This document shows, in pieces, positions 296 through 28,296 of a stretch of DNA of 53,246 nt. The notes below the pieces were generated by a model. It did not search any database, was not told the origin of the DNA, and worked only from the letters and a program-made list of their open reading frames with translations. The position numbers and the translations under genes were made by a program. How positions within the stretch are numbered: position 1 is the stretch's first letter; each line of letters starts with the position of its first letter. The stretch covers positions 1-53,246 of IMG/VR virus record IMGVR_UViG_3300043622_000001; one strand, given 5' to 3'. The DNA comes from a virus.

Positions 296-321
296 TGGCG
301 ACCCGACCGAAGCCGGGCCGC
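296..321 (-). other. Second UUCG-capped hairpin in the non-coding leader (minus-strand RNA)
   Basis: Minus strand reads GGCGGCCCGGC uucg GUCGGGUCGCC: an 11-bp stem including 2 G-U pairs. On the plus strand these become A-C mismatches, so the structure favours the minus-strand RNA. Confidence 0.3.
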
Positions 322-471
322 CGAGAAAGGGATGAGGCCCAGAAGGTGCCGCCGCTGCTCGGCGCGACGGCTCGGTGTGCAGCGAGAATCTGAGCGAGGC
401 TCCCCCACCAGGCGCCTCCGCGCGGGCGATCGGCCGCCGAGCCGGTCGGTCGCCTGCCGGGTTGGTGTCGG

Positions 472-777
472 TCACGCCGCCGAGTCCTCGGGCGTCGGCG
501 GGTCCATCAGGCTGTCGATGACGGGATCGACCGGATACGCGTGGAGGTGATCGCGGATGCGGATCAGCACGTCGCCCGTCGGGCAGTAGCCGGGCCGCTT
601 GAAGATGTCCGTGACCGTCGAGGGCGAGAGCCGGGCAGGCTCCTTCATCAGGCTCGAACGGTTCAGGCCGCGGCGCTTGAGCTGGTACTCCAGCCGTTCG
701 GGGCTGAAGCCACCAGGCCGGGGGAGAGTTCGTGGCTGCGTCATGAGTATTGGGTAATTCTGCCTCATCTTCGACAC
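472..777 (-). CDS. Cro/CI-type HTH DNA-binding protein (candidate Cro-like early regulator)
   Basis: ORF track, 101 aa. HTH-like segment 'LNRSSLMKEPARLSPSTVTDIFKRPG'. Divergent from the XRE gene at 847. The start is ambiguous (GTG 777, ATG 768 or ATG 744). Confidence 0.7.
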   Translation of the reverse strand: MSKMRQNYPILMTQPRTLPRPGGFSPERLEYQLKRRGLNRSSLMKEPARLSPSTVTDIFKRPGYCPTGDVLIRIRDHLHAYPVDPVIDSLMDPPTPEDSAA

Positions 778-846
778 AAACGCGCACCGAATTTCAGGCA
801 GGAGCCTGACGACCGCTCCGACCCACCGATACGCTGTCCGCGCGCC
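778..846. promoter_or_regulatory. Divergent promoter/operator region of the lysogeny switch
   Basis: Locally AT-richer. Perfect palindrome TCAGGC-agga-GCCTGA at 794-809 overlaps a candidate TGACGA (807-812) - 17 bp - TACGCT (830-835) promoter for the plus-strand XRE gene. Confidence 0.45.
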
Positions 847-1194
847 ATGACAAAGAGGCCAGGCAGCACCGACCCCGAGTCACGCCGGCAGATCGAGCAA
901 CGACGTATCGCCGGCATGATCCGCGCCGCCCGCCGCCGGGCCGGCCTGACCCAGGAGGCACTCGCCCTCCGGATGACCCAGATGGGCACGCAGGCGACGC
1001 GCAGCCAGATATCGATGTGGGAGACGAGCCAGATGCCGGGCGCGTACAAGCTGGTCGCCCTCGTCCACGCCGTGGTCAGCGTGGGCCGGCCGCGGGGCGA
1101 GGGCGACCGGGAGCTGGACCGTCTCCTCGATGCCTTCGGCCAACTCGGGCGCCTGGATGACGACGACCGGCAGCCGCGACGGCGGGACGGCTGA
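847..1194 (+). CDS. XRE-family HTH transcriptional repressor (candidate CI-like immunity repressor)
   Basis: In-frame ATG at 847 inside ORF 541..1194. 'RRRAGLTQEALALRMTQMGTQATRSQISMWETSQ' is a canonical XRE/Cro-CI helix-turn-helix. Confidence 0.85.
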   Translation: MTKRPGSTDPESRRQIEQRRIAGMIRAARRRAGLTQEALALRMTQMGTQATRSQISMWETSQMPGAYKLVALVHAVVSVGRPRGEGDRELDRLLDAFGQLGRLDDDDRQPRRRDG

Positions 1195-1325
1195 CCCGCT
1201 ACCCTCCCGTTCGTCCCTTCCGAACAGGCGGGAATCGCGCTAGGGTAAGGGCCGCGCGACAGATGTGGCGGACGTGTTGCAGAGAGAGGGCAATCCGGGA
1301 GCTGGCGAGACGGGAGGTGCCAGGC

Positions 1326-1496
1326 ATGGAGTCCAAGGAGCAGATAGCAACTCTTCAGGTGGCGGTGGATGCGCTCCACAGCCCCGAGTACCTGGCCGAG
1401 CAGCTCGCGAGCCGCATGGCCGCTGACGGGTTCCCCGCCGGCCTTGTGATGATCGCCCAGGGCCTCCTGGAGACGATCCGCGCGGTCGGCACGTAG
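1326..1496 (+). CDS. Hypothetical protein (56 aa)
   Basis: In-frame ATG within ORF 1263..1496, preceded by a GGGAGG Shine-Dalgarno about 9 nt upstream. Protein-like composition ('MESKEQIATLQVAVDALHSPEYL'). Confidence 0.5.
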   Translation: MESKEQIATLQVAVDALHSPEYLAEQLASRMAADGFPAGLVMIAQGLLETIRAVGT

Positions 1497-1541
1497 TCGA
1501 TCCAGCGGAACGGGTCGGCGCAGTAATCGCTCCAGTGGAGT

Positions 1542-1615
1542 TCAGAACGGCCCAGCGGCCCGTCGGCTGCGGGATCGACTTCGGCAGCACAGATCGATCC
1601 ATCGGGCCGTTCTGA
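1542..1615. repeat. Nested inverted repeat upstream of the recombinase gene (attP arm/core or int control candidate)
   Basis: TCAGAACGGCCC (1542-1553) is the perfect reverse complement of GGGCCGTTCTGA (1604-1615). An inner pair is GGATCGA (1572-1578) / TCGATCC (1594-1600). Confidence 0.6.
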
Positions 1616-1683
1616 GCCCCTCCGAGCGCCTCGAATCCGGGGCGATCGTGCGATTTGTTCGCCCGATTTCCGGGGCAGCCGCC

Positions 1684-1695
1684 TAAAATTTCCTC
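1684..1695 (+). promoter_or_regulatory. Candidate -10 box (TAAAAT) giving a leaderless transcript for the recombinase gene
   Basis: TAAAAT at 1684-1689 with 6 nt to the GTG start at 1696 and no Shine-Dalgarno. The same geometry is seen at 50516-50528. Confidence 0.4.
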
Positions 1696-2658
1696 GTGGC
1701 CGAGGAACGGCTCCGAGCCATCGAGGTCGCGCCCCGAAACCGCTTGGCCGTCGCGGTCGACGAGTACCTGGCGGACTGCCGGGCTCGGGGTCTGCGCAGC
1801 AAGACCGTGCAGCGCTCGTACGCCTGGCCGCTGCGGCACCTCTTCCTCCCCTGGTGCGAGGCCGAGGGCGTCGATGACCCAGCCGCCCTGACCCGCGGCC
1901 TGGTCAACCGCTGGACCGTCAGCCTGCACGAGCAGGGCGGTGCCCGCGGCCACCTGAAGCCGGCGTCGATCCTGGCCTACGTCGAGCCGGTCAACCGCTG
2001 GCTGCGCTGGATGCACGAGCAGGGCGAGATGGAGCACCGGCTGAAGGCCCACCGGCCCCGGCTCCCCAAGCGCGTGGTCGAGGTGCTGACGCCGGCCGAG
2101 GTGGAGCGGATGGTGGACACGGCGCGCAACGTCCGCGACCGGCTCATCGTGCGCTGCCTGTGGCAGACGGGCTGTCGCGCCTCCGAGCTGCTCCACCTCC
2201 GCCTCGGCGACGTGACGGTCCACGACCGCCGGCCGGCGCTGCGGCTGCTGGCTCCCGACGTGGGCGGCGGGGCCAAGGGCGGCCGCGAGCGCCTGGTCCC
2301 CATCCCCCACCTCGCGCCGGAGCTCCGCCGCTACATCGAGCGGGCGCGGCCGGAGAGCTACAGCGACCGCCTGTGGCTGAGCCTGCGCCGGACGCCGGCC
2401 GGGGAGTTCGTCCCGCTGGAGCTGGGCGGCCTGGAGCAGATGATCCGCCAGCTCGCGCAGGACGCTGGGATCAAGCGCCGCGTCCACCCGCACCTCTTCC
2501 GGCACTCGGCGGTGACCCACTGGCTCCGGAAGGGCATGAGCCCGCTCCAGGTGGCGAACATCGTCGGCCACTCCAGCCTGAAGATGATCCACGAGATCTA
2601 CGGCCACCTGAACGTCGGGGACGCCTACGAAGCCCTGGCCCGGGTGCTGGACGAGTAG
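1696..2658 (+). CDS. int: Tyrosine recombinase/integrase (XerC/D-like), recombinase 1
   Basis: 320 aa. Catalytic signature 'GCRASELL' (Arg I), 'HPHLFRHSAV' (H-x-x-R), 'VGHSSLKMIHEIYGHL' (His/Tyr). Adjacent to the repressor pair. Confidence 0.9.
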   Translation: MAEERLRAIEVAPRNRLAVAVDEYLADCRARGLRSKTVQRSYAWPLRHLFLPWCEAEGVDDPAALTRGLVNRWTVSLHEQGGARGHLKPASILAYVEPVNRWLRWMHEQGEMEHRLKAHRPRLPKRVVEVLTPAEVERMVDTARNVRDRLIVRCLWQTGCRASELLHLRLGDVTVHDRRPALRLLAPDVGGGAKGGRERLVPIPHLAPELRRYIERARPESYSDRLWLSLRRTPAGEFVPLELGGLEQMIRQLAQDAGIKRRVHPHLFRHSAVTHWLRKGMSPLQVANIVGHSSLKMIHEIYGHLNVGDAYEALARVLDE

Positions 2659-2675
2659 GTCTCTGAATACGAAAA

Positions 2676-2695
2676 GGCCGGGGTTTCCCCCGGCC
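2676..2695. terminator. Bidirectional hairpin between the convergent int and GNAT genes
   Basis: GGCCGGGG-tttc-CCCCGGCC, preceded by AAAA on the plus strand. Lies between the stop codons at 2658 and 2772. Confidence 0.55.
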
Positions 2696-2771
2696 CTCCC
2701 GTAATCCAGCCAAAGCTCCTCTTGTTACGCCGCCAGCCCGGAGCGGGGCTTGCGGTCGGTCATGACAGGGA

Positions 2772-3392
2772 CTACCTCCTGATGGTGGCCGCCGACGGGG
2801 TGCCGGCGGCGCGAGGGTCGAGAATCCGGCGGGCGCGCTCCACGAGACGCGGAGGCGCGTAGTCCGCGGGCCTGACGTCCAGCCGCCCGGCGGGGCTCAG
2901 CGTCAGGCGCACGATCGGCCGGAAGCCGGCGTTGGCGTGCGCGGCCTGGCTGGGCTCGTTGTCGTCGAGGATGCCGTTCCACATGACGGCGCGGCCTTCG
3001 CGGGCCAGCTGCCAGCCGGCGCAGCGCAGAAGCCTGGGAGCCAGCCCGAGCCCGCGGTACTCCGGGACCGTGCCCACGTCCCAGCCGTGCACCTCGTCGG
3101 CGGCGAAGAAGAGCGGGCGCCCGAGCGGCCAGGCGTACTCGACGCCGGCGGACACCCAGAGCCAGGAGACGACCTCGCGCTGGCGGGTGACCACCCATGC
3201 CCGGCAGCCGCGGGCGAAGCGGCCGGCGACCTCGGCCTCGGTGGTCCTCATCGCGCGGGCCAGCGAGCGGACCTCGCGGACCTCGTCGGCGACGTACGCG
3301 CCGCACGCCTCCGGCCGCTGGACGCGGGCCAGGTCGAGCGCCCAGAGGGCGGCGTGGACGCGCTGCGGCTCGACGTGGGCCAGGGCTGTCAC
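2772..3392 (-). CDS. GNAT-family N-acetyltransferase
   Basis: 'VPEYRGLGLAPRLLRCAGWQLA' is the acetyl-CoA motif A (R-G-x-G-x-A). C-terminal 'AAHANAGFRP'. GTG 3392 overlaps the upstream stop (GTGA). Confidence 0.8.
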   Translation of the reverse strand: MTALAHVEPQRVHAALWALDLARVQRPEACGAYVADEVREVRSLARAMRTTEAEVAGRFARGCRAWVVTRQREVVSWLWVSAGVEYAWPLGRPLFFAADEVHGWDVGTVPEYRGLGLAPRLLRCAGWQLAREGRAVMWNGILDDNEPSQAAHANAGFRPIVRLTLSPAGRLDVRPADYAPPRLVERARRILDPRAAGTPSAATIRR

Positions 3393-3586
3393 GCCGGCAC
3401 CACGTGAATCGACAGGCCATCGACCACGTCGGCCCACTCCGCCCAGTCCACGCCAGGCCAGTTCGTTCCGAACCAGTCCTGGCCCAGGCGCTCGACGACG
3501 ACCGCCATCGCTCCCTCGGCGCAGTCACCCGGCGTGTCCGCCACGATGGTGGCGCCGATCAGCTCCCTCGCGTAGGCCCAGGCCAT
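3389..3586 (-). CDS. Hypothetical protein (65 aa, acidic, Trp-rich)
   Basis: ATG at 3586 overlaps the upstream stop (ATGA). 'MAWAYARELIGATIVADTPGDCAEG...'. Below or near the ORF-track cutoff within ORF 3389..3829. Confidence 0.55.
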   Translation of the reverse strand: MAWAYARELIGATIVADTPGDCAEGAMAVVVERLGQDWFGTNWPGVDWAEWADVVDGLSIHVVPA

Positions 3587-3894
3587 CACGCCGCCCTCCG
3601 CTCCAGCTCGGCGACCCGCCGCTCCAGCCTGACGACCTTCGGGTCCGGGCGGCCAGCACGCCACCAGCCGATGGCGAGCGCCGTGAGCGTGACCGGGACG
3701 ATCAGCGCAGGCAGCGCCCATTCGCCGTCGACGAGGCCCATCACGACGAGCCAGAGCTGGCTGACGGCGAGGCACACGCTGCCGGCGCGGCGCCGGTCGA
3801 AGGCCAGCAGCAGCAGGTAGCCCGACCACACCCAGGGCACGGCGGCCAGCGACGGCCAGGACGTCCGGATGGCCTCGGGCAGCAGCGGGTCCAT
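3586..3894 (-). CDS. Small integral membrane protein (102 aa)
   Basis: ORF track. Three hydrophobic segments followed by a charged helix 'RLERRVAELERRAA'. Confidence 0.65.
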   Translation of the reverse strand: MDPLLPEAIRTSWPSLAAVPWVWSGYLLLLAFDRRRAGSVCLAVSQLWLVVMGLVDGEWALPALIVPVTLTALAIGWWRAGRPDPKVVRLERRVAELERRAA

Positions 3895-3897
3895 GAC

Positions 3898-4341
3898 CTA
3901 CGGCCGCTCCGGCCAGAAGTGCTCGATGACGCCGTGCCCGATGAAGTACCCGGCCATGTTGCCGACCAGGACGATCGCGCCCGCGCTGGTCACCGTGCCG
4001 TGCAGGGTCGCGCCGTCGGGTCCGAGGGTCGGCTGGAACGTCACCCAGCCGAGGACCATCAGGGCGGTCAGCGCGGCGACGTCGATCGCGCTGTGGGCGT
4101 AGCGCACCACGAATGCACGGCGCCGGGACTCCAGGGGCTCCTCCTCCTCGATCAGCCGTTGCGTGCAGGGTCGGCAGAGCAGGGCTCCGGAGGCCACGTC
4201 ACGGAACGCGATCGGGCCGCCGCAGTGATCGCAGGGCTGGACCCACTCGCACGACTGGCACAGGGTGTCGTCCGGCAGCGCGGCGCACTCCGGGCACGGG
4301 CCCTCCTCGATCGGGTCGAGGTAGGTGTTCAGCGTCTCCAT
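3898..4341 (-). CDS. Cys-rich (zinc-ribbon-like) membrane protein (147 aa)
   Basis: ATG 4341 overlaps the translocase stop (ATGA). 'CPEC...CQSC...CDHC...CRPC' is followed by three hydrophobic segments. Confidence 0.65.
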   Translation of the reverse strand: METLNTYLDPIEEGPCPECAALPDDTLCQSCEWVQPCDHCGGPIAFRDVASGALLCRPCTQRLIEEEEPLESRRRAFVVRYAHSAIDVAALTALMVLGWVTFQPTLGPDGATLHGTVTSAGAIVLVGNMAGYFIGHGVIEHFWPERP

Positions 4342-6335
4342 CAGGAACTCCTCATCGCAACCACGGAAGGGATACCGGCCCGCCGCCACCGCGCACGCGC
4401 CACCCTGACTGCCTTGCCAGCGTCCCGCAGGCCCTCGAGCTTCTTGGCAACCCACGAGTCGCTCATCCCCGTCATCCGAACCAGCTCCGCACGCTCAACC
4501 CCCTCTTCAGGGGCCGCGTCGAGCAGCTCGAGCAGGCGGTCCAGCGGATCCAGGCGGGTAGCCGGATCCACGAGGTGCAGTGCAGGCCGGCCTGGCTCGG
4601 CAGCCGTGGTGGGCTCCGCAGGTGGCGGCAGCGGCCGGACGGAGAGGTTGCCCTCGGTGGCAACCCCCTCGTCCAGCGGCCGGGAGCCACGAGCGGCGGC
4701 GGCCAGGGCGGCGACCTCGGCCACCTTGGCGTCGTCGACCCAGTAGGTCTGCCAGCGGTCGGGCGAGTCGTAGACGCCCTGCCAGCGGACGTAGGCGAGG
4801 CCGGGCCGGTCGAGCAGATCGGTCCTCCAGCCGGCGCGCTTGGCGCCGTCGCCGAAGGACAACTCCTCGTCACCGGGGAGCATGTAGTACGAGACCGTGA
4901 GGCCGAGCTGCGACTTGGCGTCACCGGTCTGCCCGGAGCCGCCGGTCTTGGCCGCCGAGGCGCGCTGCGTGCAGAGGAGGAACCAGATCCCGGTGGCGCG
5001 CGCCTGCGCCAGCAGCACGTCGAGCAGATCCTTCGCCTTCGTCGGCAGCACGCCCCACTCGTCGACCACGAAGATGACCAGCGGCTCCGCGGCGGACGGA
5101 ACCCAGAAGCGCCGGCCTGCCGCGCGCAGGACGCCCCAGCGCCGCTTCATCTCCGCGGTCGCGCGCTCCAGCAGGACGATGGCCTCGTCGCCATCGATGG
5201 CCAGCTCGCGGAAGAGGGTCGCCCAGGGTGACAACTCGATCCCGCCCTTGGCGTCGACTCCCCAGTGCTCGACCTCGGCCAGCAGGGCCGTCTCAGCCAG
5301 CAGGCAGTTGACGAAGGACCCCTTGCCCCAGCCGGTCTGTCCGGTGACCTGGACGTGTGGCGCGAGCCGGCCGTCCTTGGGGTTGATGAGCGGCAGCAGC
5401 ACCGGCCGCCGGCCGCTGAACTCGCCGAGCCGGACGGGATCGGTCACCCGCCGCGGCGGCTTCGCCGGCCAGGGCAGCATCGCGGGCGGCGGCGCCATCT
5501 CGGCCACCGAACGGAACTCCAGCACGACCTCGTGGGCCAGCCCTTCGTCGGCTCGCTTGGGCCGCAGCGATCCCGGCCGCAGTCGCCACTCGGTCTCCAG
5601 CGCGCCGACGACCAGGCGGACGTCGTCGAGGGTCTTGCCCGAGCCCAACTCCAGGCGGACCCAGGCCGGGCCCGAGGGGTTCCAGTGGGCACCCACGAGG
5701 GCGCTGTTCGGCAGGTTGACTTGACGCATGCGCGACGTCCACGGCCACCTCTTCCCCATCCGCCCGAACTGCCGCGCCGCCCGGAGCTGGAGCCGGAGCG
5801 CCGACCGCAACTCCCTCGCGTACGCGCGCGTGACGCGCGCGCGAGGCCAGTCGATCGTCGGCAGCCGCCGGAGCCGCCGGTAGACGGCCCAGACCATCGC
5901 GAAGAGGGGAGCCCCAGCGGCCAGCGGCACGTCCAGCTCGGGGCGGTAGGGGCCGAGCTGCCAGGCCAGCGAGAGCCAGGCCACGGCCAGTACGCCCACC
6001 GTCCGGACGTAGCGCCGCTCCAGCATCCGCTCGTAGCGCTGGGTGCCGGTGCGGACCACGAGGGCGGCCATCAGGGAGGCCGCCCACCAGGCGTCGGGGT
6101 TCATGCGGGACCCCAGGAAGGACAGGACCAGGAGGGCGGTCGGCCCGGCCAGCGGGAGCCAGCCAGGGGACCAGAACCGGGCCAGCCCGGGGCCTGGTTC
6201 CGGACCTCCGGCGGCAAACGGTATTCCGGTATCGGTACCGGAGACCCCCGGCCCAAGGCGCGCGCGTGTGACGCCCGCGTACTCGCCCGCGCGCGCGAGG
6301 CTCGAAGCGCTGGTGGTCCGGGTGAAGAGGCCCAT
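4341..6335 (-). CDS. Membrane-anchored FtsK/SpoIIIE-family dsDNA translocase, TraB/Tra-like (conjugative-plasmid/AICE type)
   Basis: 664 aa. N-terminal hydrophobic segments, Walker A 'VTGQTGWGKGS', Walker B 'LVIFVVDEWG', 'LLCTQRAS', and a C-terminal winged-helix-like 'ELVRMTGMSDSWVAKKLEGLRDAGKAV'. Confidence 0.9.
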   Translation of the reverse strand: MGLFTRTTSASSLARAGEYAGVTRARLGPGVSGTDTGIPFAAGGPEPGPGLARFWSPGWLPLAGPTALLVLSFLGSRMNPDAWWAASLMAALVVRTGTQRYERMLERRYVRTVGVLAVAWLSLAWQLGPYRPELDVPLAAGAPLFAMVWAVYRRLRRLPTIDWPRARVTRAYARELRSALRLQLRAARQFGRMGKRWPWTSRMRQVNLPNSALVGAHWNPSGPAWVRLELGSGKTLDDVRLVVGALETEWRLRPGSLRPKRADEGLAHEVVLEFRSVAEMAPPPAMLPWPAKPPRRVTDPVRLGEFSGRRPVLLPLINPKDGRLAPHVQVTGQTGWGKGSFVNCLLAETALLAEVEHWGVDAKGGIELSPWATLFRELAIDGDEAIVLLERATAEMKRRWGVLRAAGRRFWVPSAAEPLVIFVVDEWGVLPTKAKDLLDVLLAQARATGIWFLLCTQRASAAKTGGSGQTGDAKSQLGLTVSYYMLPGDEELSFGDGAKRAGWRTDLLDRPGLAYVRWQGVYDSPDRWQTYWVDDAKVAEVAALAAAARGSRPLDEGVATEGNLSVRPLPPPAEPTTAAEPGRPALHLVDPATRLDPLDRLLELLDAAPEEGVERAELVRMTGMSDSWVAKKLEGLRDAGKAVRVARARWRRAGIPSVVAMRSS

Positions 6336-6345
6336 CAGGTTCCCG

Positions 6346-6729
6346 TCAGCGCCCCGGCTGGGAGGAGGTGTAGGTGGCCCAGAGGTTGCCCAGGTCGGCG
6401 TGGTGCTGGATGCCCCAGGAGAGCAGCGGGACCCCGACGAAGAGGATGACCAGCGCCTTGCCCAGGCCCTTCAGCATGCGGTCGCCGAAGTCGTGCAGGG
6501 GCGGGATGAAGTGGCACAGCCCGCCGGCCGCCAGCACGACCAGGGCGAAGGCGGCGCCCAGGGCCTGTGCGGTGGCGACCGGGTCCACGCCAACGTGCTG
6601 GATGGTGCCAAGGATGGTCGTACGGCCGGTCGGCCCGAGCAGGTAGAGGAGCCCGAACGCCAGGCCGCCGAGGATGATCGAGGCCCAGAACGGGTCCCGC
6701 TTCCAGAGTCCCGTCGCGAACTTATGCAT
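6346..6729 (-). CDS. Polytopic membrane protein (127 aa), Spd-like by context
   Basis: In-frame ATG 6729 (ATGA overlap) within shadow ORF 6346..7350. 'MHKFATGLWKRDPFWASIILGGLAFGLLYLLG...' has about 4 hydrophobic segments. Confidence 0.65.
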   Translation of the reverse strand: MHKFATGLWKRDPFWASIILGGLAFGLLYLLGPTGRTTILGTIQHVGVDPVATAQALGAAFALVVLAAGGLCHFIPPLHDFGDRMLKGLGKALVILFVGVPLLSWGIQHHADLGNLWATYTSSQPGR

Positions 6730-6980
6730 CAGAAAGACCTCCTGTTGAACCGGGCGACGAGGGCACGGACGGCCCAGGCGCCCCAGATGGCGGCCATCCA
6801 GAGGACGGCGATGACGAGGACGATCGGGATGCCGATGCACTTCCCGAGGAAGTCGGCGACCCGCTGCTGCTCCGGCCGCAGGACCGGCAGGTCGATGACC
6901 TCGGCGATCCCGTCGAGGATCAGCACGTGGTCGTCGTCGCCCTCCTCGGGCAGCTGGCCGGCGTAGTGGACGCCGCGCAT
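6729..6980 (-). CDS. Small membrane protein (83 aa)
   Basis: ORF track. Acidic N-terminus and a C-terminal TM 'IGIPIVLVIAVLWMAAIWGAWAV'. Confidence 0.6.
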   Translation of the reverse strand: MRGVHYAGQLPEEGDDDHVLILDGIAEVIDLPVLRPEQQRVADFLGKCIGIPIVLVIAVLWMAAIWGAWAVRALVARFNRRSF

Positions 6981-7456
6981 CAGGCCACCAGGTAGGAGCC
7001 GAAGGCCCCGGAGTTGTAGGTGGACCAGGCGTTCCAGTTCCGCCCGTAGTTCGAGATCCGGGCCGCGGCGCGCGCGGCGCAGCCCAGCTCCATCGCGCAG
7101 GCCGGCGAGACGTCCGGGTGCGCGAGCACGTTGATCTGCCAGGGTCCGTAGGACTGCTCCGGCGCCTGGCCGGGGACGCAGTTCGTAGGGCAGAGGTGGA
7201 CGGCATCCGAACGCCCGCCCGACTCGGCGCGAGCGATGGCGGCTCCGACCGGCGCGGCGGCCGGCGGCACCCCGGCGGCCTCAAGCGCGCCGACCAGCTC
7301 GGCGTAGCTGTAGACGACGCCCGGCCCGGACGAGTACAGGCGGACGTCACCCTGGCTGCGGAGCGCGTTGCAGCCGATCTGCACGACCAGCAGGAACGCG
7401 ATCACCTTCCAGTGCCGGAGGCAGAAGCTGATGACGGCGAGGGAGTCGGCGATCAC
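6980..7456 (-). CDS. Membrane-anchored lytic transglycosylase (SLT/lysozyme-like)
   Basis: N-terminal TM, then 'AIARAESGGRSDAV' (catalytic E-S) and 'YGPWQINVL', 'WSTYNSGAY-like' motifs of SLT domains. GTG start overlaps the upstream stop. Confidence 0.75.
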   Translation of the reverse strand: MIADSLAVISFCLRHWKVIAFLLVVQIGCNALRSQGDVRLYSSGPGVVYSYAELVGALEAAGVPPAAAPVGAAIARAESGGRSDAVHLCPTNCVPGQAPEQSYGPWQINVLAHPDVSPACAMELGCAARAAARISNYGRNWNAWSTYNSGAFGSYLVA

Positions 7457-7536
7457 CGGGACGCCCTCTCGACGGCGCGGTCCACGGCCCAGGCGATCAC
7501 GAGGGCGATGCAGCCGAAGACGATCAGGCCGGTCAC
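7453..7536 (-). CDS. Tiny single-TM peptide (27 aa)
   Basis: Not in the ORF track as such. GTG 7536 overlaps the upstream stop (GTGA). 'VTGLIVFGCIALVIAWAVDRAVERASR'. Confidence 0.35.
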   Translation of the reverse strand: MTGLIVFGCIALVIAWAVDRAVERASR

Positions 7537-7625
7537 CGCAGCACCCTCCCGGAGATCACCGAGCCGGCCGCCCAGATGAGGAGCGGGGCGGCGATCGCGA
7601 GCACGACGACGAGCGCGAGGGTCAT
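7533..7625 (-). CDS. Tiny single-TM peptide (30 aa)
   Basis: ATG 7625 overlaps the upstream stop (ATGA). 'MTLALVVVLAIAAPLLIWAAGSVISGRVLR'. Confidence 0.4.
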   Translation of the reverse strand: MTLALVVVLAIAAPLLIWAAGSVISGRVLR

Positions 7626-8569
7626 GCCGCCACCTCCGGGCCAGGGGTGAGTGCGATCGCCGGCGGCGACTCGCTCGCAATCTGCTTGCGAGCCGCGGTG
7701 AGAGCGCGCTTCGCGGCGTGCTCGCCGAGCCCGGTGGCGGCCGCGACCTTGTTCCAGTCGCCGCCGGCTCGCGCGATACGCAGGGCCTTGGGGTCGATGC
7801 GCTTCGTCCGTCCGTTGCGCAGCCCGGCCTCGGGAGGCTGCGATTCGTCGTGCGAGTCGACCGCCGCCTCCGCCGCGTCGTCCGCGCCCGAGACGTTCGC
7901 AGCCTCGCGCAGCTCCTCCAGCCGAGCGCGCTCGCGAAGGACCAGCTCGGTGACCGCGACCGCGAGGATGATCCCGATCCCGGGCACCATGGCCGCGATC
8001 AGGCGAACCCAGACGTCGGCGCGCGCGAGGTCGAGCAGCGAGAGGTCCAGATAGGGCTCGCCGTAGGTTGGCACCACAAGCGCACCGTGGAGCGCGTTGC
8101 CCGCGAGCGAGAGCGGCGCCGTCACGACGGTCACTGCGAACAGGCGCCACCGACGGGTGGCTGGCGACTTCCAGCGCGCGAGCAGGAACTGGCCGATCAC
8201 CGAGCACGTCAGCGGCGCGTCGAGCGCGACCGGCACCACGTGCGCAGGGCCGAAGGCGTAGCCCACGGCCATGAGCACGCCGACGAGGTTCCCGTAGGAG
8301 CCGTAGTAGCTCGACGCCAGCGTAGCCACGACGAGGAGCCACACGGTGGCCTCCAGCCAGTTGACCAGCGGCCAGTCGAGAGCGCGCCGCGACCAGCGCT
8401 CGCGCTCGCGCTGCGTTCGCCGCCGCCACGCGCCGATCCGATCGCCGAGCGAGGTGCCGGAGGGCCGCGGCGGCTTCGCGGGTCCGCTCGCGAGTTCCTT
8501 CGCAGGCTCGCTCGCGGTCGGTTCGTTCGCTGTTCGCATCCGCGATCGCAGGAGGCTCGCAAGTCGCAT
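7622..8569 (-). CDS. DUF2637-like membrane protein with a C-terminal HTH-like tail (first gene of the transfer-like operon)
   Basis: Start taken at ATG 8569 within ORF 7622..8692. Four hydrophobic segments with 'GPAHVVPVALDAPL', reminiscent of DUF2637 proteins that accompany FtsK-like genes in actinobacterial mobile elements. C-terminal 'GGDWNKVAAATGLGEHAAKRALTAARK'. Confidence 0.55.
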   Translation of the reverse strand: MRLASLLRSRMRTANEPTASEPAKELASGPAKPPRPSGTSLGDRIGAWRRRTQRERERWSRRALDWPLVNWLEATVWLLVVATLASSYYGSYGNLVGVLMAVGYAFGPAHVVPVALDAPLTCSVIGQFLLARWKSPATRRWRLFAVTVVTAPLSLAGNALHGALVVPTYGEPYLDLSLLDLARADVWVRLIAAMVPGIGIILAVAVTELVLRERARLEELREAANVSGADDAAEAAVDSHDESQPPEAGLRNGRTKRIDPKALRIARAGGDWNKVAAATGLGEHAAKRALTAARKQIASESPPAIALTPGPEVAA

Positions 8570-8651
8570 GGGCGCACATACTACACGATCTGGCGCACTT
8601 TGGCGCGTTAGATGGTATGGTTGGCGCGAAGTGCATGTACGATGCGCCCCA
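8570..8651. promoter_or_regulatory. Divergent control region with reiterated GGCGC(A/G)C boxes
   Basis: GGCGCAC at 8571 and 8592, GGCGCG at 8602 and 8623, and an inverted GGCGCA at 8643-8648. TANNNT boxes TATGGT (8616) and TACGAT (8638). Confidence 0.45.
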
Positions 8652-9335
8652 GTGCCGACGATCAAGTCCCTGGACGAAGCGGCGGAGATCACCGGGGTCC
8701 CGCGCCGAACCCTTCAGAGGTGGCTCAACGAGGGCAAGCTGACCCCTTGGACGATCGAGGGCGACCGGCGGCGCTTCGTGGACACCGACGAGATCAAGCT
8801 CCTACGGGAGCCGAAGCCAGCGCCCCGACCCGCCAAGGACCCGATCCCCCCGAAGCCGGTGGCCGCGGCGCGGACGCCCGGCCAGCGGCCGATGAGCGGT
8901 CCCGTCCACCCGCCGGTCGCGATGGCCGTCATCGTCCAGGCCGGCAAGGTGCTCATGACTCGACGTCGGTTCACGATCGACGTCGTAGGGGTTGGGCCGA
9001 CTCAGCTCTGGTCCTTCTGCTCCGGCGAGGTCGAGGTTGACGAGACGCCTGAGGCGGCGGCCATCCGCGAGACGGCCGAAGAGGTCGCGCTCGTGGTCCG
9101 CGCCGTGGACCGCATCGGCGAGCAGATCCACCCCAAGAGCCCAGACAAGCGCCTGTTCGTCTATGTCGCCTGCGAGGTGATCGCTGGCACGCCCCAGGTC
9201 ATCGACCACGAGGAACTGACCGAGTGGCGCTGGTGCACGCTGGAGGAGGCCGACGAGCTGGTGGCGATCATCGGCGGGTTCTACGGGCCCGTCCACGAGT
9301 ACCTGGAGCGCACGCTGGCGGGGGAGCGGACGTGA
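8652..9335 (+). CDS. MerR/excisionase-type HTH fused to a Nudix hydrolase (Pif-like)
   Basis: GTG 8652 within ORF 8346..9335 (alternative GTG 8631). N-terminal 'LDEAAEITGVPRRTLQRWLNEGKL'. Nudix box 'GEVEVDETPEAAAIRETAEEVAL'. Confidence 0.85.
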   Translation: MPTIKSLDEAAEITGVPRRTLQRWLNEGKLTPWTIEGDRRRFVDTDEIKLLREPKPAPRPAKDPIPPKPVAAARTPGQRPMSGPVHPPVAMAVIVQAGKVLMTRRRFTIDVVGVGPTQLWSFCSGEVEVDETPEAAAIRETAEEVALVVRAVDRIGEQIHPKSPDKRLFVYVACEVIAGTPQVIDHEELTEWRWCTLEEADELVAIIGGFYGPVHEYLERTLAGERT

Positions 9336-9919
9336 CCGCGCCGACCGACGAGCGAGCCGGCCTCTACCGGCTCTACGACGAGCACGACTTCCTGCTGTAC
9401 GTCGGCGTCAGCCTCTCGACCTTCCGCCGCCTGTCCGAGCACGCCCAGGGGAAGGGCTGGTGGCAGCAGGTGCGGAAGATCACGCTGGAACCTCAGTCCA
9501 GCAGGGCCGGCGCTCTCGCGGCAGAGGCGCGGGCCATCCTGGAGGAGTGCCCTCTCTACAACATCGCCGGCCAGCCCCTCGGGTTCGCGCCCGACGAGGA
9601 GTTGCCGCTCGCGGCTCCCGTTCTCGATCTCACTGGCTTGGCTCCGACCGACCTCGGCCAGGTCGCCTCCAGAGCCGCCGCAGGGTACGAGCGCCTCGGC
9701 TACTTCATCCTGCCGGCCTATCTGGTGATGAGCTGCATCGCCGCCTACGTCAACGGCGGGTCGCGGCAGGCTGCGCGAGACTGGATCGCAGGGGCCGTCC
9801 TCGTAGATGAGGTGGTCATGGGCATCGCGGCGGCGCTGGCCGTGGCCATGCTCATCTGGGTCCTCACGAAATGGCGGGCCGCGCGCAATGCCTCATTCGT
9901 CGAGGCGGTGGCGCCGTGA
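9332..9919 (+). CDS. GIY-YIG-type nuclease domain with two C-terminal transmembrane segments
   Basis: GTG 9332 overlaps the Nudix stop (GTGA). 'GLYRLYDEHDFLLYVGVS...RRLSEH...EARAILEECPLYN' fits GIY-(9-11)-YIG with conserved R, E and N. C-terminus has 'YFILPAYLVMSCIAAYV' and 'VVMGIAAALAVAMLIWVL'. Confidence 0.65.
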   Translation: MTAPTDERAGLYRLYDEHDFLLYVGVSLSTFRRLSEHAQGKGWWQQVRKITLEPQSSRAGALAAEARAILEECPLYNIAGQPLGFAPDEELPLAAPVLDLTGLAPTDLGQVASRAAAGYERLGYFILPAYLVMSCIAAYVNGGSRQAARDWIAGAVLVDEVVMGIAAALAVAMLIWVLTKWRAARNASFVEAVAP

Positions 9920-10080
9920 CCCGCCTCGCCCTGGAGCCCCTCTGGGTCGTCGTCGTGGTCCTATCGGGGCCGGTGGTCACGGCCACGCTGGCCGTGCTGC
10001 TGCACCTCACCGGCCGCCGGCTGAAGCGCCAAATCGACCTCCTTGCCGAGTACCTGCGGGAGTCGGAGACGCGAACGTGA
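9916..10080 (+). CDS. Small single-TM protein (54 aa), paralog of 10693..10938
   Basis: GTGA overlap. 'EPLWVVVVVLSGPVVTATLAVLLHLTGRRLKRQIDLLAEY' aligns with the product of 10693..10938. Confidence 0.55.
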   Translation: MTRLALEPLWVVVVVLSGPVVTATLAVLLHLTGRRLKRQIDLLAEYLRESETRT

Positions 10081-10307
10081 GCGACCTCATCGTCATCCGC
10101 TCCCGCTTCGAGGACCGCCTGCGGCGCATCAACGCCGATCTCCCGGTCGGTGCCACGGAGATCGGGGAGCTGTACACGATCCTGTACAACCATCGCCACG
10201 AGATCGCGGACATCGTCGCGGCGGCGCGCGAGCACTGGAGCGAGGGCGGCGACAGCGCCCGGTTGGCCAAGCAGGCGACTGACACGCTCCGGCGGCTGGA
10301 CTCGTGA
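10077..10307 (+). CDS. Hypothetical protein (76 aa)
   Basis: GTGA overlap at both ends. 'VSDLIVIRSRFEDRLRRINADLPVGATEIGELYTILYNHRHE'. Confidence 0.55.
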   Translation: MSDLIVIRSRFEDRLRRINADLPVGATEIGELYTILYNHRHEIADIVAAAREHWSEGGDSARLAKQATDTLRRLDS

Positions 10308-10693
10308 CCCTCTTCAGCGGTCCCGAGTACGCCTCGTACATCGCCCTCTGCCGCGAGCTGCGGCTGGAGCGGGATTTGCAGGAGGGCGATTGGTACTTCC
10401 ATGAGTCCCTTCGGCCCGATCAGGAAGAGGGCTGGGTACTGCTGGCCGCTGGCGACGAGCGCGCCGAGAGCTTCGAGGTCTGGCTCCCGCGCCTCGACCA
10501 GTGGCTCGCGATGCTGGAGGAGGCCGGAGCCGACTGCCCGGAGTTCGACCGCGAAACAACCACTGGTCACTACGTCCTCCGGCGTGGCATGCCCGACGAA
10601 TGGGGCCACAGTCAGTACGGAACCGGTCAAACCCGCGAGGAGGCCGCCGCCCGTCTCTGGAGGGCCGTGACCGGACGGACGGGGCCGGCGTAG
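10304..10693 (+). CDS. Hypothetical protein (129 aa)
   Basis: ORF track. Coupled start (GTGA). Acidic, soluble-looking. Confidence 0.6.
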   Translation: MTLFSGPEYASYIALCRELRLERDLQEGDWYFHESLRPDQEEGWVLLAAGDERAESFEVWLPRLDQWLAMLEEAGADCPEFDRETTTGHYVLRRGMPDEWGHSQYGTGQTREEAAARLWRAVTGRTGPA

Positions 10694-10938
10694 TGGAACC
10701 CCTCTGGGTCGACGTCGTGATCCTGTCCGGACTCCTGGCCGTGGCCGTGGCGCTCCTGGCTGTGCTGCTGAACCTGGCCGGTCGGCGGCTGCTGCGCTTG
10801 GAGCAGCGGCATGAACGCCTGGTCGCGATCGTGACGGCGCACCTCTCCGAGTGGCACTACGTCAGCTCGATGCCCGAGGCTCAGGCCGCCGACCAGCGCC
10901 AGATCGACCTCCTCGCCGCCTACAACCGCGAGGAGTAG
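10693..10938 (+). CDS. Small single-TM protein (81 aa), paralog of 9916..10080 with an internal insertion
   Basis: GTG 10693 overlaps the TAG of the upstream gene. 'EPLWVDVVILSGLLAVAVALLAVLLNLAGRRL...RQIDLLAAY'. Confidence 0.55.
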   Translation: MEPLWVDVVILSGLLAVAVALLAVLLNLAGRRLLRLEQRHERLVAIVTAHLSEWHYVSSMPEAQAADQRQIDLLAAYNREE

Positions 10939-11122
10939 GGCCTCGCTACCGAACGGACGCCCGGTGCCCGGCAGACGGATGCCACCCGCCTTCCTCCGGC
11001 GGCACAACGGCAGGCCGGTGCTCTTGAGGCGCTTGAGCTATGCCGGGCCGGGCGCCCTACGCCGACGCTGAGCCCGATCGTACGGGTTTGTACGGGTGCG
11101 TCCGACCCCGGAAAAGGAGAGA

Positions 11123-11152
11123 GACCCGGCCAGCCATCGGGCCAGCCGGGTC
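11123..11152. terminator. Structured element between convergent operons (candidate bidirectional terminator)
   Basis: GACCCGG (11123-11129) pairs with CCGGGTC (11146-11152). The interior holds a direct repeat GGCCAGCC-atcg-GGCCAGCC. Upstream tandem GTACGGGT at 11080 and 11090. Confidence 0.3.
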
Positions 11153-11185
11153 GCAGCGTGGGATCGGGGCGACGTCAGGTCAGGG

Positions 11186-11338
11186 TCAGTGCAGCCCCAG
11201 GTGCGGGAGGAGTTCGGTGAGAATCCAAGCCGCGAGCCCGAGCGCGATCAGGTTCACGCGGCCGATGGCGGGCACGAACATCGCGACCACGAAGGCCACG
11301 AAGCCGACGAACAGCAGGAGCGGGACGAGGATCGTCAC
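11186..11338 (-). CDS. Small two-TM membrane protein (50 aa), holin-like by position
   Basis: Translated by hand. GTG 11338 overlaps the upstream stop (GTGA). 'VTILVPLLLFVGFVAFVVAMFVPAIGRVNLIALGLAAWILTELLPHLGLH'. Confidence 0.45.
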   Translation of the reverse strand: MTILVPLLLFVGFVAFVVAMFVPAIGRVNLIALGLAAWILTELLPHLGLH

Positions 11339-11682
11339 CGCGCGCGAGCGTGCGCCGGTGCCGGCTGGTTGGGGACCACGAACACGCCGACCGCGGCCAG
11401 TGCGATCACGATGAGCTGCACGATCTCCGAGGTGGTCACCGGCCCGGCCACCAGGAAGCCCACGAGCGCGGTGGCGATGGCCATCAGCGCGGCCACGATC
11501 GCCTTCGAGTAGGCGGCGACACCCTCGGGCAGGTTGGGGACGATGACGACCCCGATCGCGCCGAGGCCGGCGATGGCGATGTTGACCAGCTCGACGCTGG
11601 TCACGTGCCCGTCGGTGACGGCCGCCGCGACCGCCGAGGCGACGGTGGCCAGGACCGCGGCGAGGAACTTGGCGTAGGTCAT
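11335..11682 (-). CDS. Holin-like polytopic membrane protein (115 aa)
   Basis: ATG 11682 is preceded by an AAGGAGG Shine-Dalgarno. About 4 hydrophobic segments. Immediately downstream of the peptidase gene. Confidence 0.6.
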   Translation of the reverse strand: MTYAKFLAAVLATVASAVAAAVTDGHVTSVELVNIAIAGLGAIGVVIVPNLPEGVAAYSKAIVAALMAIATALVGFLVAGPVTTSEIVQLIVIALAAVGVFVVPNQPAPAHARAR

Positions 11683-11693
11683 GAGGTCCTCCT

Positions 11694-12485
11694 TCAGACC
11701 TTGAGGTCGGCGAGCTGCTTCAGGTCGATGCCTTGGGATTTCAGCAGCACGTAGGTGGACAGGCGCATGCGCCCTGACCCGTGGTCGCCCCATTCATCCC
11801 CCCAGGAGTTCCGGAAGCGGATGACGCTGGCGTGCGGGTCGCGGTCGTCCCAGGACTCCAGGGCCTCGACGTAGACCTCGTGCCCACCGGCGACCGGCGT
11901 GTTCACCCAGCCGGGGTCGGAATCCACGAAGCCGTCAGCGTCGGGCTCGAACCACGCCTCCAGCCACGGCGTGCCCATGAGGACGCCGCCGCGCTGGAGC
12001 AGGGTTGCGAAGCCCTGCAGGCTCGTGGCCCAGACGTAGCGTCCGATCAAGCCGGCTGCCTTCAGCGCGCGGGCCACGCCCAGGCCGGAGGAGCCGGTGT
12101 CGTCGGGCGGGTAGGTGCCGGGGAAGCCGTCGTCCACGGTGGCATCCGAGTACAGCTCCACGGCCCACTTCTCGTCGAGTACCGCGTTCCCGCTGAGGGC
12201 GAGGTTGTGGAGCTGGAGCCGGTTCAGGCCCGCGGCGCCGACCAGCGCGGCCGTTGCGTAGGTGCCGGCGTTGCCGGTGCAGGAGCCGAGGTTGCCCTGG
12301 TCGAGCACGGGCAGCGGCGAGTGGTGGTCGGCAGGCCGGATGGAGACGCCGGCCAGAACCTCAAGCTCGCGCTCGATCGCGTAGGCCAGGGAGCGCGCAT
12401 CGAGGGCCAGGTGCCGGCCCAGCCGCTGCCCCTCGTGGACGACCTCCTCGAAGCGGTGCAGCAGGATGCCGTTGGTGACGAGCAT
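11694..12485 (-). CDS. Papain-like (C1 family) cysteine peptidase; candidate endolysin peptidase
   Basis: Catalytic triad context 'QGNLGSCTGNAG' (Cys), 'AGGHEVYV' (His), 'FRNSWGDEWGDHG' (Asn-Ser-Trp). Lies directly upstream of the holin-like genes. Confidence 0.8.
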   Translation of the reverse strand: MLVTNGILLHRFEEVVHEGQRLGRHLALDARSLAYAIERELEVLAGVSIRPADHHSPLPVLDQGNLGSCTGNAGTYATAALVGAAGLNRLQLHNLALSGNAVLDEKWAVELYSDATVDDGFPGTYPPDDTGSSGLGVARALKAAGLIGRYVWATSLQGFATLLQRGGVLMGTPWLEAWFEPDADGFVDSDPGWVNTPVAGGHEVYVEALESWDDRDPHASVIRFRNSWGDEWGDHGSGRMRLSTYVLLKSQGIDLKQLADLKV

Positions 12486-12555
12486 GGAGCCTCCTGCCGG
12501 CGGGCCGGCGCGGGTACTGGTACCCGGGGAACTACGCGGGGGTAGATCCGAGGAA

Positions 12556-13038
12556 CTACGTGGGGTTCAGGTACGCCGGCCAGGCGGCCAGCCACTTCGC
12601 GACGAGGTGGGCCTGAGCGTCCGCGAGGGTTGCCCGACCGGCGCAGACGTCCGCGTGCAGCGCGCCCTCGTCGCGGTCCTTCGGGTTCGAGAGCCCGAGC
12701 TCCGGGCTCAGGTTGTGCACGTCGCGCGTGGCGCCGCCGAGGCCGAGGGCCATCCGGTGGTCCTCCTCGTAGTCGTGCACCGTGCCGGGGAGTTGGAGCT
12801 CCACGAGCTGCCGCGCCTTGAGAGCGTCCGTGTAGTTCGACGAGGGCCTGACGGTCGCGGTCCAGCCGGCCACGCAGATGGTGGTAGCGATCGTCGCCTG
12901 AGCGACCGCCGGGTTGAGCTCGCAGAGGACGACGGCGCCCTGGTGGCAGGCCCCAGCCGGAGCCGAGGGTTGCGGCGATGGCGCGGGAGCTCCGCTCGGG
13001 CCGCAGACCACGAGGAGGGCGGCGAGGGCAAGCCTCAC
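12556..13038 (-). CDS. Secreted lipoprotein with an HNH-like (His-Me finger) motif
   Basis: GTG 13038 (GTGA overlap) within ORF 12556..13425. Lipobox 'ALLVVCG'. 'DYEEDHRMALGLGGATRDVHNLSPE' resembles D-H-x3-L-x2-GG-x5-N-L. Confidence 0.55.
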   Translation of the reverse strand: MRLALAALLVVCGPSGAPAPSPQPSAPAGACHQGAVVLCELNPAVAQATIATTICVAGWTATVRPSSNYTDALKARQLVELQLPGTVHDYEEDHRMALGLGGATRDVHNLSPELGLSNPKDRDEGALHADVCAGRATLADAQAHLVAKWLAAWPAYLNPT

Positions 13039-28266: not shown

Positions 28267-28296
28267 GGAGGTAGCCGAGGGGATTCTTGGTCTGCG

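Follow-up and report, generated by a model that had tools for sequence, protein, structure and literature searches.

A helix-turn-helix::Nudix fusion gene and a GIY-YIG protein with a predicted membrane anchor in a variable operon that diverges from TraB-like genes of a tailed phage

We have analyzed a six-gene operon carried by the plus strand of the IMG/VR virus record IMGVR_UViG_3300043622_000001 (53,246 nucleotides; this whole stretch is referred to as the window). The operon extends from 8631/8652 to 10938 and comprises a gene in which a helix-turn-helix (HTH) is fused to a Nudix domain (gene 1), a GIY-YIG gene with a hydrophobic tail (gene 2) and four small genes (genes 3 to 6). The six co-oriented genes were recognized as coding in frame plots of the G+C content at third and second codon positions (GC3/GC2), with the phase shifting exactly at the gene junctions. 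An independent GC3-based gene caller returned the identical six open reading frames (ORFs), and JGI gene calls of matching length are on record for genes 1, 2 and 5 (P0121, P0001 and P0133). An initial annotation had described six genes chained by GTGA overlaps and starting at 8570. The six genes were recovered, but only four of their junctions are GTGA overlaps (9332-9335, 9916-9919, 10077-10080 and 10304-10307), the gene 5/gene 6 junction being a TAGTG with a 1-nt overlap (10691-10695). The start had to be moved as well: gene 1 begins at a GTG codon at 8631 or 8652, and positions 8570-8630 form a divergent control region. On its 3' side the operon is bounded by a GC-rich hairpin with a T-tail (11123-11152, minus strand), identified by a terminator scan and from the sequence, which ends the convergent lysis/late operon. 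ARAGORN called a 91-nt tRNA-Tyr over the 3' end of gene 6 (10864-10954, minus strand), a call that we discarded as a false positive, Rfam having detected no tRNA at this position even at E ≤ 10.

Gene 1 (8631-9335, plus strand) encodes 234 amino acids (aa) if translated from GTG 8631 or 227 aa from GTG 8652, with GTG 8631 aligning with the ATG of two orthologues. Its Nudix domain matched PF00293 with an E-value of 2e-20 (73.5 bits, cut-off 21.1), and the nearest PDB sequences were those of MutT and CTP pyrophosphohydrolase. The HTH matched HTH_17 (PF12728; 1e-7, 32.6 bits, cut-off 27), MerR (PF00376; 4e-7, 30.0 bits, cut-off 28.2), MerR_1 (PF13411; 28.5 bits, cut-off 21.6) and the TIGR01764 excisionase domain (29.9 bits, cut-off 28.8). 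The Nudix box G125-x5-E131-x7-R139-E140-x2-E143-E144 (numbered from the 8652 start) is intact, with the final Gly replaced by Ala, and the six named residues are invariant among relatives. Judged by its Nudix box and profile match, gene 1 belongs to the Nudix hydrolase superfamily, with a predicted MutT/NudG-like domain. The profile scores above the cut-offs and the intact box thus bear out the fusion of an excisionase/MerR-type HTH to a Nudix domain proposed in the initial annotation. The MerR_1 match spans just profile positions 2-42 of 69, and a Pro-rich linker connects the HTH to the Nudix domain; neither the coiled-coil dimerization helix nor the effector-binding C-terminus of MerR proteins was found in gene 1. 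Since the match is partial and leads into a linker and a Nudix domain, we describe this segment as an excisionase/MerR-superfamily HTH rather than as a MerR regulator.

Gene 1 had few relatives. Three full-length orthologues (P0122, P0123 and P0125) displayed 43-61% identity. A tblastn search with gene 1 returned only generic Nudix matches in phages and Streptomyces Nudix genes in uninformative plasmid contexts. The HTH::Nudix orthologues of loci L001, L002/L003, L004 and L087 are divergent from a multi-pass membrane protein (a DUF2637 protein in L087), small membrane proteins and a peptidoglycan hydrolase, which is of the CHAP, M23 or SLT_3 type in these relatives and of the SLT_3 type in the window. 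Some relatives swap the MerR-type for an XRE-type HTH, the back-to-back position being unchanged. The closest genomic relatives of the Nudix domain (40-48% identity) were found in Streptomyces, Kitasatospora, Dactylosporangium, Nonomuraea and Asanoa, often as a tandem of an HTH::Nudix and a Nudix gene. In several of these genomes a TraB-like gene was located 3-7 kb upstream, encoded by the opposite strand, and TraB-like matches were also seen upstream in viral loci. In a classical AICE-like locus (AICE, actinomycete integrative and conjugative element) of Dactylosporangium roseum, an XRE::Nudix gene and a second Nudix gene lie ~2 kb from TraB, again on the opposite strand. The combination of Nudix, regulator and TraB-type gene is likewise present in the window, where the TraB-like gene is ~2.3 kb away, and a similar setting was seen in the AICE-like loci L173, L184 and L195. 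Based on these comparisons of sequence and gene order, gene 1 is the only one of the six genes that is conserved in place.

Tandem Nudix pairs are common in actinomycete proviruses and AICE-like loci (L009-L039 and L172-L207, around 10000-10800). The first Nudix gene of the pair is divergent and often HTH-fused, and the second is 40-47% identical to gene 1; the window has the fused copy alone.

The position and relatives of gene 1 agree with the AICE literature, according to which most AICEs encode a Nudix protein, frequently beside an XRE regulator (PMC2440964, PMC3218068). In pSAM2, the Nudix motif of Pif is needed for conjugal immunity, with the mechanism being unknown (PMC2440964, PMC3218068). 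Such a Nudix-dependent block of redundant transfer among cells that already have the element is known for pSAM2 Pif alone. Gene 1 resembles the pSAM2 Pif/KorSA and AICE nud-xre pairs in having an intact Nudix domain beside a regulator and a TraB/FtsK-type gene on a mobile element. It differs from them in that regulator and Nudix form one polypeptide and in that the HTH is of the excisionase/MerR type rather than GntR or XRE. The likeness to Pif is meant here as one of class and context. The link to Pif suggested in the initial annotation could therefore be kept in this form: gene 1 is an AICE-type Nudix, of the class of Pif, fused to a DNA-binding domain and adjoining TraB-type transfer genes as its relatives do. 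Within the AICE Nudix/regulator class, gene 1 represents a new, fused member.

The 61 bp between the divergent start codons (8570-8630) were studied by sequence inspection, repeat searches and a three-way alignment. This back-to-back control region contains four short repeats, GGGCGCA (8570-8576), TGGCGCA (8591-8597), TGGCGCG (8601-8607) and TGGCGCG (8622-8628), as well as the direct repeat TTGGCGCG, whose copies are 21 bp apart. It also contains a -10-like box for each strand: TAGTAT on the minus strand, which is the reverse complement of 8578-8583, and TATGGT on the plus strand (8616-8621). The alignment with L087 and L001, which have the same HTH, showed conservation of the repeats, of the -10-like box on either strand and of the two start codons. 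This conservation supported 8569 (minus strand) and 8631 (plus strand) as the likely starts, with predicted nearly leaderless transcripts. Two loci with an XRE-type HTH share instead the palindrome CGCCAC-ATAGC-N9-GCTAT-GTGGCG at the same place. The operator-like sequence thus switches with the HTH type whereas the Nudix domain is constant, which constitutes the best evidence in this analysis for regulation of the divergent promoters by these proteins. From these sequence patterns we infer promoter and operator roles for 8570-8630 and binding of the gene 1 protein to the TGGCGCR repeats.

Divergently transcribed regions of this kind are known from the kil-kor systems (korA-tra of pIJ101, traR-traB of pSN22/pSVH1), where a repressor gene diverges from a TraB-type operon with overlapping promoters and repeated operators. 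The Kor and TraR proteins belong to the GntR family and have no Nudix domain. The control region of the window is kil-kor-like in this sense, and the conserved repeats are what points to repression. A second comparison is offered by NrtR, which has an N-terminal Nudix domain, often with a degenerate box, and a C-terminal winged HTH, and which regulates NAD metabolism. Both NrtR and gene 1 combine Nudix and HTH in one polypeptide, suggestive of nucleotide-responsive control of transcription. Gene 1 departs from NrtR in its opposite domain order, its intact MutT/NudG-like box and its mobile-element context.

Gene 2 (9332-9919, plus strand) encodes 195 aa, with an N-terminal GIY-YIG domain, a linker, a hydrophobic hairpin and a basic tail. 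The protein matched the PHROG endonuclease families 16880 and 3312 (7e-17 and 6e-14), and the Pfam GIY-YIG match was below threshold (PF01541; 0.003, 18.2 bits, cut-off 22.6). In an AlphaFold2 (AF2) model, residues 9-80 had a predicted local distance difference test score (pLDDT) of ~97. The nine best Foldseek matches were UvrC GIY-YIG N-domains (1yd6, 1ycz and others), with a probability of 1.0 and template modeling scores, relative to the target, of 0.60-0.69. In a 43-sequence alignment, Y12, R13, Y23, G25, R33, H37 and E65 were invariant and N77 was conserved in at least 90% of the sequences. By profile, model and alignment, the N-terminal domain belongs to the GIY-YIG superfamily with a complete set of predicted catalytic residues. 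The motifs noticed in the initial annotation are hence part of a modeled beta-beta-alpha-alpha-beta-alpha GIY-YIG fold, with the UvrC N-domain as top match.

The linker of gene 2 (aa 81-121) was modeled with low confidence. It is followed by two hydrophobic segments on the Kyte-Doolittle (KD) scale, at aa 122-140 (KD 1.83) and aa 151-183 (helix at about aa 161-181, KD 2.53), and then by KWRAAR. The two helices announced in the initial annotation are thereby retained as a predicted membrane anchor after the nuclease domain. The protein has no N-terminal signal sequence and carries basic residues at its C-terminal end, which suggested an N-in/C-in hairpin with a cytoplasmic nuclease. Considering the hydropathy, the positive-inside pattern and the AF2 helices together, this topology is the likely one. 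The tail region retains a coding-type GC3. The nearest orthologue, P0002, shares 63% identity in the N-terminal half, and its tail is also hydrophobic, but diverged.

The GIY-YIG family of gene 2 is widespread. It comprised 197 matches in the protein collection and more than 116 IMG/VR loci of 32-72% G+C, the latter found with a trimmed five-sequence alignment of the N-domain as query; a metagenome scan with gene 2 gave only one weak relative. Mycobacteriophage and Gordonia phage proteins were 34-43% identical to gene 2. The usual architecture of the family is I-TevI-like, with the GIY-YIG domain followed by a soluble tail of ~100 aa that is often HTH_17, XRE, GntR, Zn-ribbon or PhD-like. With its catalytic N-domain of ~75 aa, flexible linker and C-terminal module, gene 2 is built like the I-TevI-type and free-standing phage GIY-YIG endonucleases. 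It differs from homing endonucleases in having a hydrophobic hairpin in place of an HTH, Zn-finger, GntR or PhD-like domain.

The four remaining genes encode small proteins. Gene 3 (9916-10080, plus strand) and gene 6 (10693-10938, plus strand), both called from their GC3 frame, are predicted single-pass membrane proteins of 54 and 81 aa, respectively, with hydrophobic segments at aa 3-33 (KD 2.54) and aa 1-34 (KD 3.06). Their local alignment scored z = 13.8 relative to shuffled sequences, their DNA could be aligned as well, and the motifs EPLWV, GRRL and QIDLLA-Y are common to both, gene 6 having in addition an insertion of ~34 aa in the predicted cytoplasmic tail. This supported the paralogy of two single-pass proteins that the initial annotation had noticed. 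Gene 4 (10077-10307, plus strand; 76 aa), also recognized by its GC3 frame, is predicted to be soluble. Genes 3 and 4 had no match in Pfam, PHROG, NCBIfam or PADLOC, and gene 4 gave no tblastn match in any fetched locus. Altogether, no relatives of genes 3, 4 and 6 were found in any of the ~250 fetched loci. An exact look-up did not find these three genes on record, which may reflect start-codon choice and hence is not evidence of absence.

Gene 5 (10304-10693, plus strand; 129 aa) belongs to a widespread, uncharacterized phage family with 79 metagenomic homologues, none of which has a Pfam domain. In other phages these homologues are found among blocks of early genes, where they are not associated with Nudix or GIY-YIG genes. 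The AF2 model (pLDDT 87) displayed a two-fold architecture of two alpha-beta3 units. Its resemblance to the double-stranded RNA-binding domain, to HicB and to the "phage ABA sandwich" was non-significant (E ≥ 0.015), and no function was assigned on this basis.

We have compared the genes that accompany gene 1 and gene 2 in related loci. The closest relative, phage L002, is 84-93% identical at the nucleotide level in the shared segments. There, the Nudix stop codon is followed by a 35-nt remnant of the 3' end of gene 5, an unrelated 44-aa membrane gene and the same terminator/lysis cassette. Genes 2-4 are missing from this site in L002, and a full copy of gene 5 lies elsewhere, beyond the lysis peptidase. 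Indeed, the genes downstream of the Nudix gene differ in every relative. The six genes, which the initial annotation had treated as one candidate exclusion or defence module, are therefore not a co-conserved set: L002 has no genes 2-4 at this site, genes 3, 4 and 6 have no detected relatives, and gene 5 occurs elsewhere. A lack of co-conservation was among the outcomes that the initial annotation itself had listed as refuting. Its interpretation was partly upheld for genes 1 and 2 individually and not for the six genes as one system.

The gene 5 remnant (L002 3717-3751) aligns to window positions 10643-10677 and is the footprint of a cargo deletion or rearrangement. The gene 3/gene 6 duplication, which flanks genes 4 and 5, may belong to the same process.

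A Nudix gene directly adjoins a GIY-YIG gene in L004 (GIY-YIG-HTH) and in L211 of Streptomyces sp. WAC08241 (GIY-YIG::GntR), and in L251 of S. ambofaciens a Nudix tandem is followed, at a distance of ~0.5 kb, by a GIY-YIG::GntR gene. The closest orthologue of gene 2, in L088, has an XRE gene and a Cys-rich gene as its neighbors. A scan with the neighboring peptidase recovered two phages, both without the Nudix arrangement. The cases of Nudix and GIY-YIG genes side by side hint that HTH, Nudix and GIY-YIG modules form a loose and sporadic functional neighborhood in actinomycete mobile elements.

The GIY-YIG::GntR genes beside Nudix genes (L211 10344-11072 and L251 9001-9795) are located in integrated elements of Streptomyces chromosomes. 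This pairing of GntR and Nudix recalls korSA-pif of pSAM2, and one may ask if there are Kor-type repressors that have a GIY-YIG domain at their N-terminus. Furthermore, a small Cys-rich protein with the pattern C-x2-C-GGHL-x5-C-x2-CGC is encoded downstream of Nudix/GIY-YIG genes in L088 (946-1152) and L001 (9205-9510); it does not occur in the window.

The divergent operon on the minus strand opens with a multi-pass membrane protein of 315 aa whose C-terminus is HTH-like (7622-8569), recognized by its GC3 frame and hydrophobic segments. Its start codon is conserved in L087 and L001. The L087 counterpart matches DUF2637 (PF10935), whereas the window protein had no Pfam match and no BLASTP similarity to the L087 protein; it is thus a counterpart of the relatives' DUF2637 proteins in position only. 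The rest of the operon (4341-7456) was assigned using Pfam, NCBIfam and hydropathy. It encodes an SLT_3 lysozyme-like protein (6980-7456; Pfam, 1e-15), two small membrane proteins by hydropathy (6729-6980 and 6346-6729) and a TraB/FtsK-like translocase (4341-6335). The latter matched FtsK_SpoIIIE in Pfam (1e-5) and, far below the cut-off of that model, plasmid_TraB in NCBIfam (4e-19). On these matches the divergence from a TraB-like operon, part of the initial annotation, was confirmed. The pSVH1-type TraB recognition 8-mer GACCCGGA was not enriched.

The window carries an exact direct terminal repeat of 127 bp (1-127 and 53120-53246), which indicated that it is a complete circular assembly of ~53.1 kb; the length of the repeat suggests an assembly overlap rather than a biological direct terminal repeat. 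Its G+C content is 70%. It encodes an HK97-type capsid, portal, TerL, RecT/YqaJ, tail and lysis genes together with two tyrosine recombinases of 317-320 aa, one near the immunity region (1696-2658, plus strand) and one between late and early genes (39085-40038, plus strand). The capsid, portal, TerL, tail, lysis and recombinase genes identify a temperate-type tailed phage. The two divergent operons are placed between the integrase/immunity region and the lysis cassette. No close cultured relative of the phage was found, and in a megablast search bases 1-12600 matched none of the cultured phages and plasmids. AICEs are defined by Int, Rep and an FtsK/TraB-type Tra within 9-25 kb and by the lack of virion genes. 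The element has Int and a TraB-like gene, but is a circular 53-kb molecule that also has capsid, portal, TerL, tail and lysis genes. The carrier of gene 1 is accordingly a complete tailed-phage genome as opposed to an AICE of 10-25 kb, and the whole element is a phage with an AICE-like module.

Among 50,697 cultured phage records, a single, weak TraB-like match was found. With its TraB-like module, the phage may represent a chimera with a conjugative element that can spread in the mycelium without virions.

A membrane-held GIY-YIG nuclease that destroys incoming DNA has an experimental precedent in SNIPE (PD-lambda-1), a membrane-bound enzyme shown to cleave phage DNA during injection (PMC13190303). 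SNIPE consists of an N-terminal transmembrane segment, a DUF4041 domain and a C-terminal GIY-YIG domain whose catalytic Glu is residue 414 (PMC13190303). DUF4041 is essential for defence and binds DNA and the tape measure protein, and anchor-less SNIPE could not be cloned constitutively, a controlled promoter being needed (PMC13190303). Gene 2 is similar to SNIPE in being a GIY-YIG protein anchored in the cytoplasmic membrane by one or two predicted transmembrane helices, with the nuclease predicted on the cytoplasmic side, and in combining a conserved nuclease with a poorly conserved membrane region. It differs in that the nuclease is N-terminal and the anchor C-terminal, in being less than half the size (195 aa) and in being phage-encoded in an operon with a Nudix regulator. 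By analogy, gene 2 could work like SNIPE but is not a SNIPE.

Taken together, we tentatively favor a composite reading, although we hold it to be somewhat short of probable. According to it, the operon consists of a Kor/Pif-like regulator with variable cargo, within the AICE-like transfer module of a temperate actinophage. The gene 1 protein would most likely bind the TGGCGCR repeats over two back-to-back, nearly leaderless promoters and, in the manner of kil-kor systems, control its own operon and the divergent membrane-protein/hydrolase/TraB-like operon. Pif-like immunity, or an activity that degrades a signal, would come from its Nudix domain, which is catalytically intact. Genes 2-6 would be recently assembled, dispensable cargo co-transcribed with gene 1. 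Gene 2, the sole recognizable effector in this cargo, would have lost a soluble DNA-binding C-terminus and gained a membrane hairpin. The hairpin would be expected to keep a nuclease that is otherwise non-specific on the cytoplasmic side of the membrane and apart from the nucleoid, from where it could cleave DNA arriving by phage injection or via a TraB pore, by a SNIPE-like logic with a different architecture. Excluding incoming DNA is the most plausible role for gene 2, and even so a doubtful one. As to the individual steps, operator binding, membrane topology, nuclease activity and an exclusion or defence phenotype are what we infer from the data described above.

We also considered the bolder version in which gene 2, possibly with genes 3 and 6 as adaptors, would be a minimal, C-terminally anchored analogue of SNIPE that arose independently from a homing-endonuclease-type ancestor and, with gene 1, would provide dual immunity against re-entry. 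The nuclease would then cut double-stranded DNA entering the mycelium from a superinfecting phage or through the TraB pore. Together with the Pif-like regulator, this would make for a chimera spreading both as virions and by conjugation-like transfer, immune to itself and to competitors. We regard this version as distinctly unlikely.

Several observations weigh against the composite reading and its SNIPE-like element. Concerning the anchor, the hairpin helices reached a pLDDT of just 50-75, the tail of gene 2 had no homologue among 1.84 billion representative proteins, and a strongly hydrophobic segment was seen in only three of 120 gene 2 homologues and in none of 80 IMG/VR loci. Such a near-unique anchored architecture could be a recent accident. 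Concerning the mode of action, no DUF4041 match was obtained for gene 2 in Pfam at E ≤ 0.1, and with no DUF4041-like module there is no evident way for it to target incoming DNA; PADLOC and Pfam gave no link to SNIPE beyond the superfamily, no SNIPE model of PADLOC was matched, and weak PDC-S14 matches were all that PADLOC returned for gene 2. Concerning the association of the genes, a GIY-YIG family member, detected by hidden Markov model, was present within 10 kb in five of ~82 Nudix-anchored loci (~6%). The overlap chain was rejected as evidence of a functional unit: 47 of the 81 same-strand gene pairs of the genome (58%) overlap by 4 or 1 nt, so that stop/start chaining is the default junction style and marks no unit by itself. 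Finally, a sigma-70 consensus scan found no promoter in the control region, the -10-like boxes having been picked by eye with the actinobacterial TAnnnT rule.

Many of these data would suit an absence of any collective function. Gene 1 would be the regulator in that case, and genes 2-6 would be unrelated ORFs carried along in a hotspot of recombination. Gene 2 would then represent a free-standing homing endonuclease in decay or domestication, a hydrophobic, GC-rich tail having by chance taken the place of its DNA-binding domain. As the main rival of the composite reading, this is a serious possibility, if on the unlikely side. The N-domain of gene 2 does come from a widespread family of phage (homing) endonucleases that usually have a soluble C-terminus of ~100 aa, and the ORFan nature of its tail agrees with chance replacement, as do the relative-less genes 3, 4 and 6, a gene 5 that moves around phages, the L002 site devoid of genes 2-4 and the overlapping junctions that are a genomic default. 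What decay would not lead one to expect is that gene 2 has retained all its catalytic residues and a coding-type GC3 in the tail, or that the tail of P0002 diverged independently and is still hydrophobic, which speaks for selection acting on its hydrophobic character. The duplication that links genes 3 and 6 has also been kept in frame, with EPLWV, GRRL and QIDLLA-Y conserved. Moreover, one would expect harm from a non-specific nuclease that is not tethered, as illustrated by the anchor-less SNIPE, which was not constitutively clonable (PMC13190303).

An accessory function in TraB-like transfer or spreading, with genes 2-6 acting like Spd genes and the nuclease processing the DNA of the element at the pore, appears quite improbable. 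The Spd genes of Streptomyces plasmids (pSVH1/pIJ101) are small and translationally coupled, show hardly any conservation and encode hydrophobic membrane proteins. A membrane location is likewise predicted for three of the five cargo proteins, and their operon adjoins and diverges from the TraB-like/SLT_3/membrane operon. On the other hand, candidate Spd-like proteins are already encoded on the minus strand with TraB, and relatives have the divergent operon and the Nudix regulator without genes 2-4 and 6. No GIY-YIG nuclease is known to be required in TraB-type transfer, and the missing enrichment of the pSVH1-type TraB recognition 8-mer also speaks against this function.

PADLOC-DB v2 was searched with the six proteins, and no named anti-phage defence system was matched. 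Generic domain-level matches were limited to the Nudix domain with the candidate PDC-S07 (1e-14), the HTH with mad1 and the GIY-YIG domain with PDC-S14 (1.6e-4); genes 3-6 had no match. A toxin-immunity or abortive infection (Abi) cassette, in which an anchored nuclease toxin would be restrained by a protein from genes 3-6 and released on infection or loss of the element, is most unlikely: some family members do fuse GIY-YIG to PhD/YefM antitoxin-like domains (P0069 and P0112) and gene 5 with its weak HicB-like fold sits in a tight operon with small partners, but the six proteins matched no toxin-antitoxin or Abi family in Pfam, PHROG, PADLOC or NCBIfam, the gene 5 fold matches were non-significant, and the closest gene 2 orthologue does not have these partners, its neighbors in L088 being the XRE and Cys-rich genes.

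Two further regions of the phage genome caught our attention. A sugar-modification cluster inside the structural module (25196-29825, minus strand) contains an NAD-dependent epimerase/dehydratase, two S-adenosylmethionine methyltransferases and two weak, sub-threshold GT2 glycosyltransferase matches. Virion glycosylation has been described for some actinophages, and the cluster could serve this purpose. An early gene (42568-43518, minus strand) contains a perfect (CTGTCT)x5 at 43014-43043 and a 24-nt tandem repeat in two copies at 43082-43129; these repeats may be iterons or an origin, or encode a repetitive peptide.

Should the cargo lack a joint function, the locus would simply be a typical moron hotspot beside a known type of regulator. 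The carrier, too, deserves attention: as a complete tailed-phage genome that includes a TraB-like module, it is an unusual phage/conjugative-element chimera. The HTH::Nudix gene and its conserved operator-like repeats offer a tractable entry to the unsolved mechanism of Pif-type conjugal immunity. If the anchored nuclease does exclude incoming DNA, membrane placement as a means of telling self from non-self, so far represented by SNIPE in Escherichia coli, would have evolved independently. It would have done so in a much smaller version of reverse topology, carried by a phage of mycelial actinomycetes, which receive double-stranded DNA by both phage injection and TraB-type conjugation.

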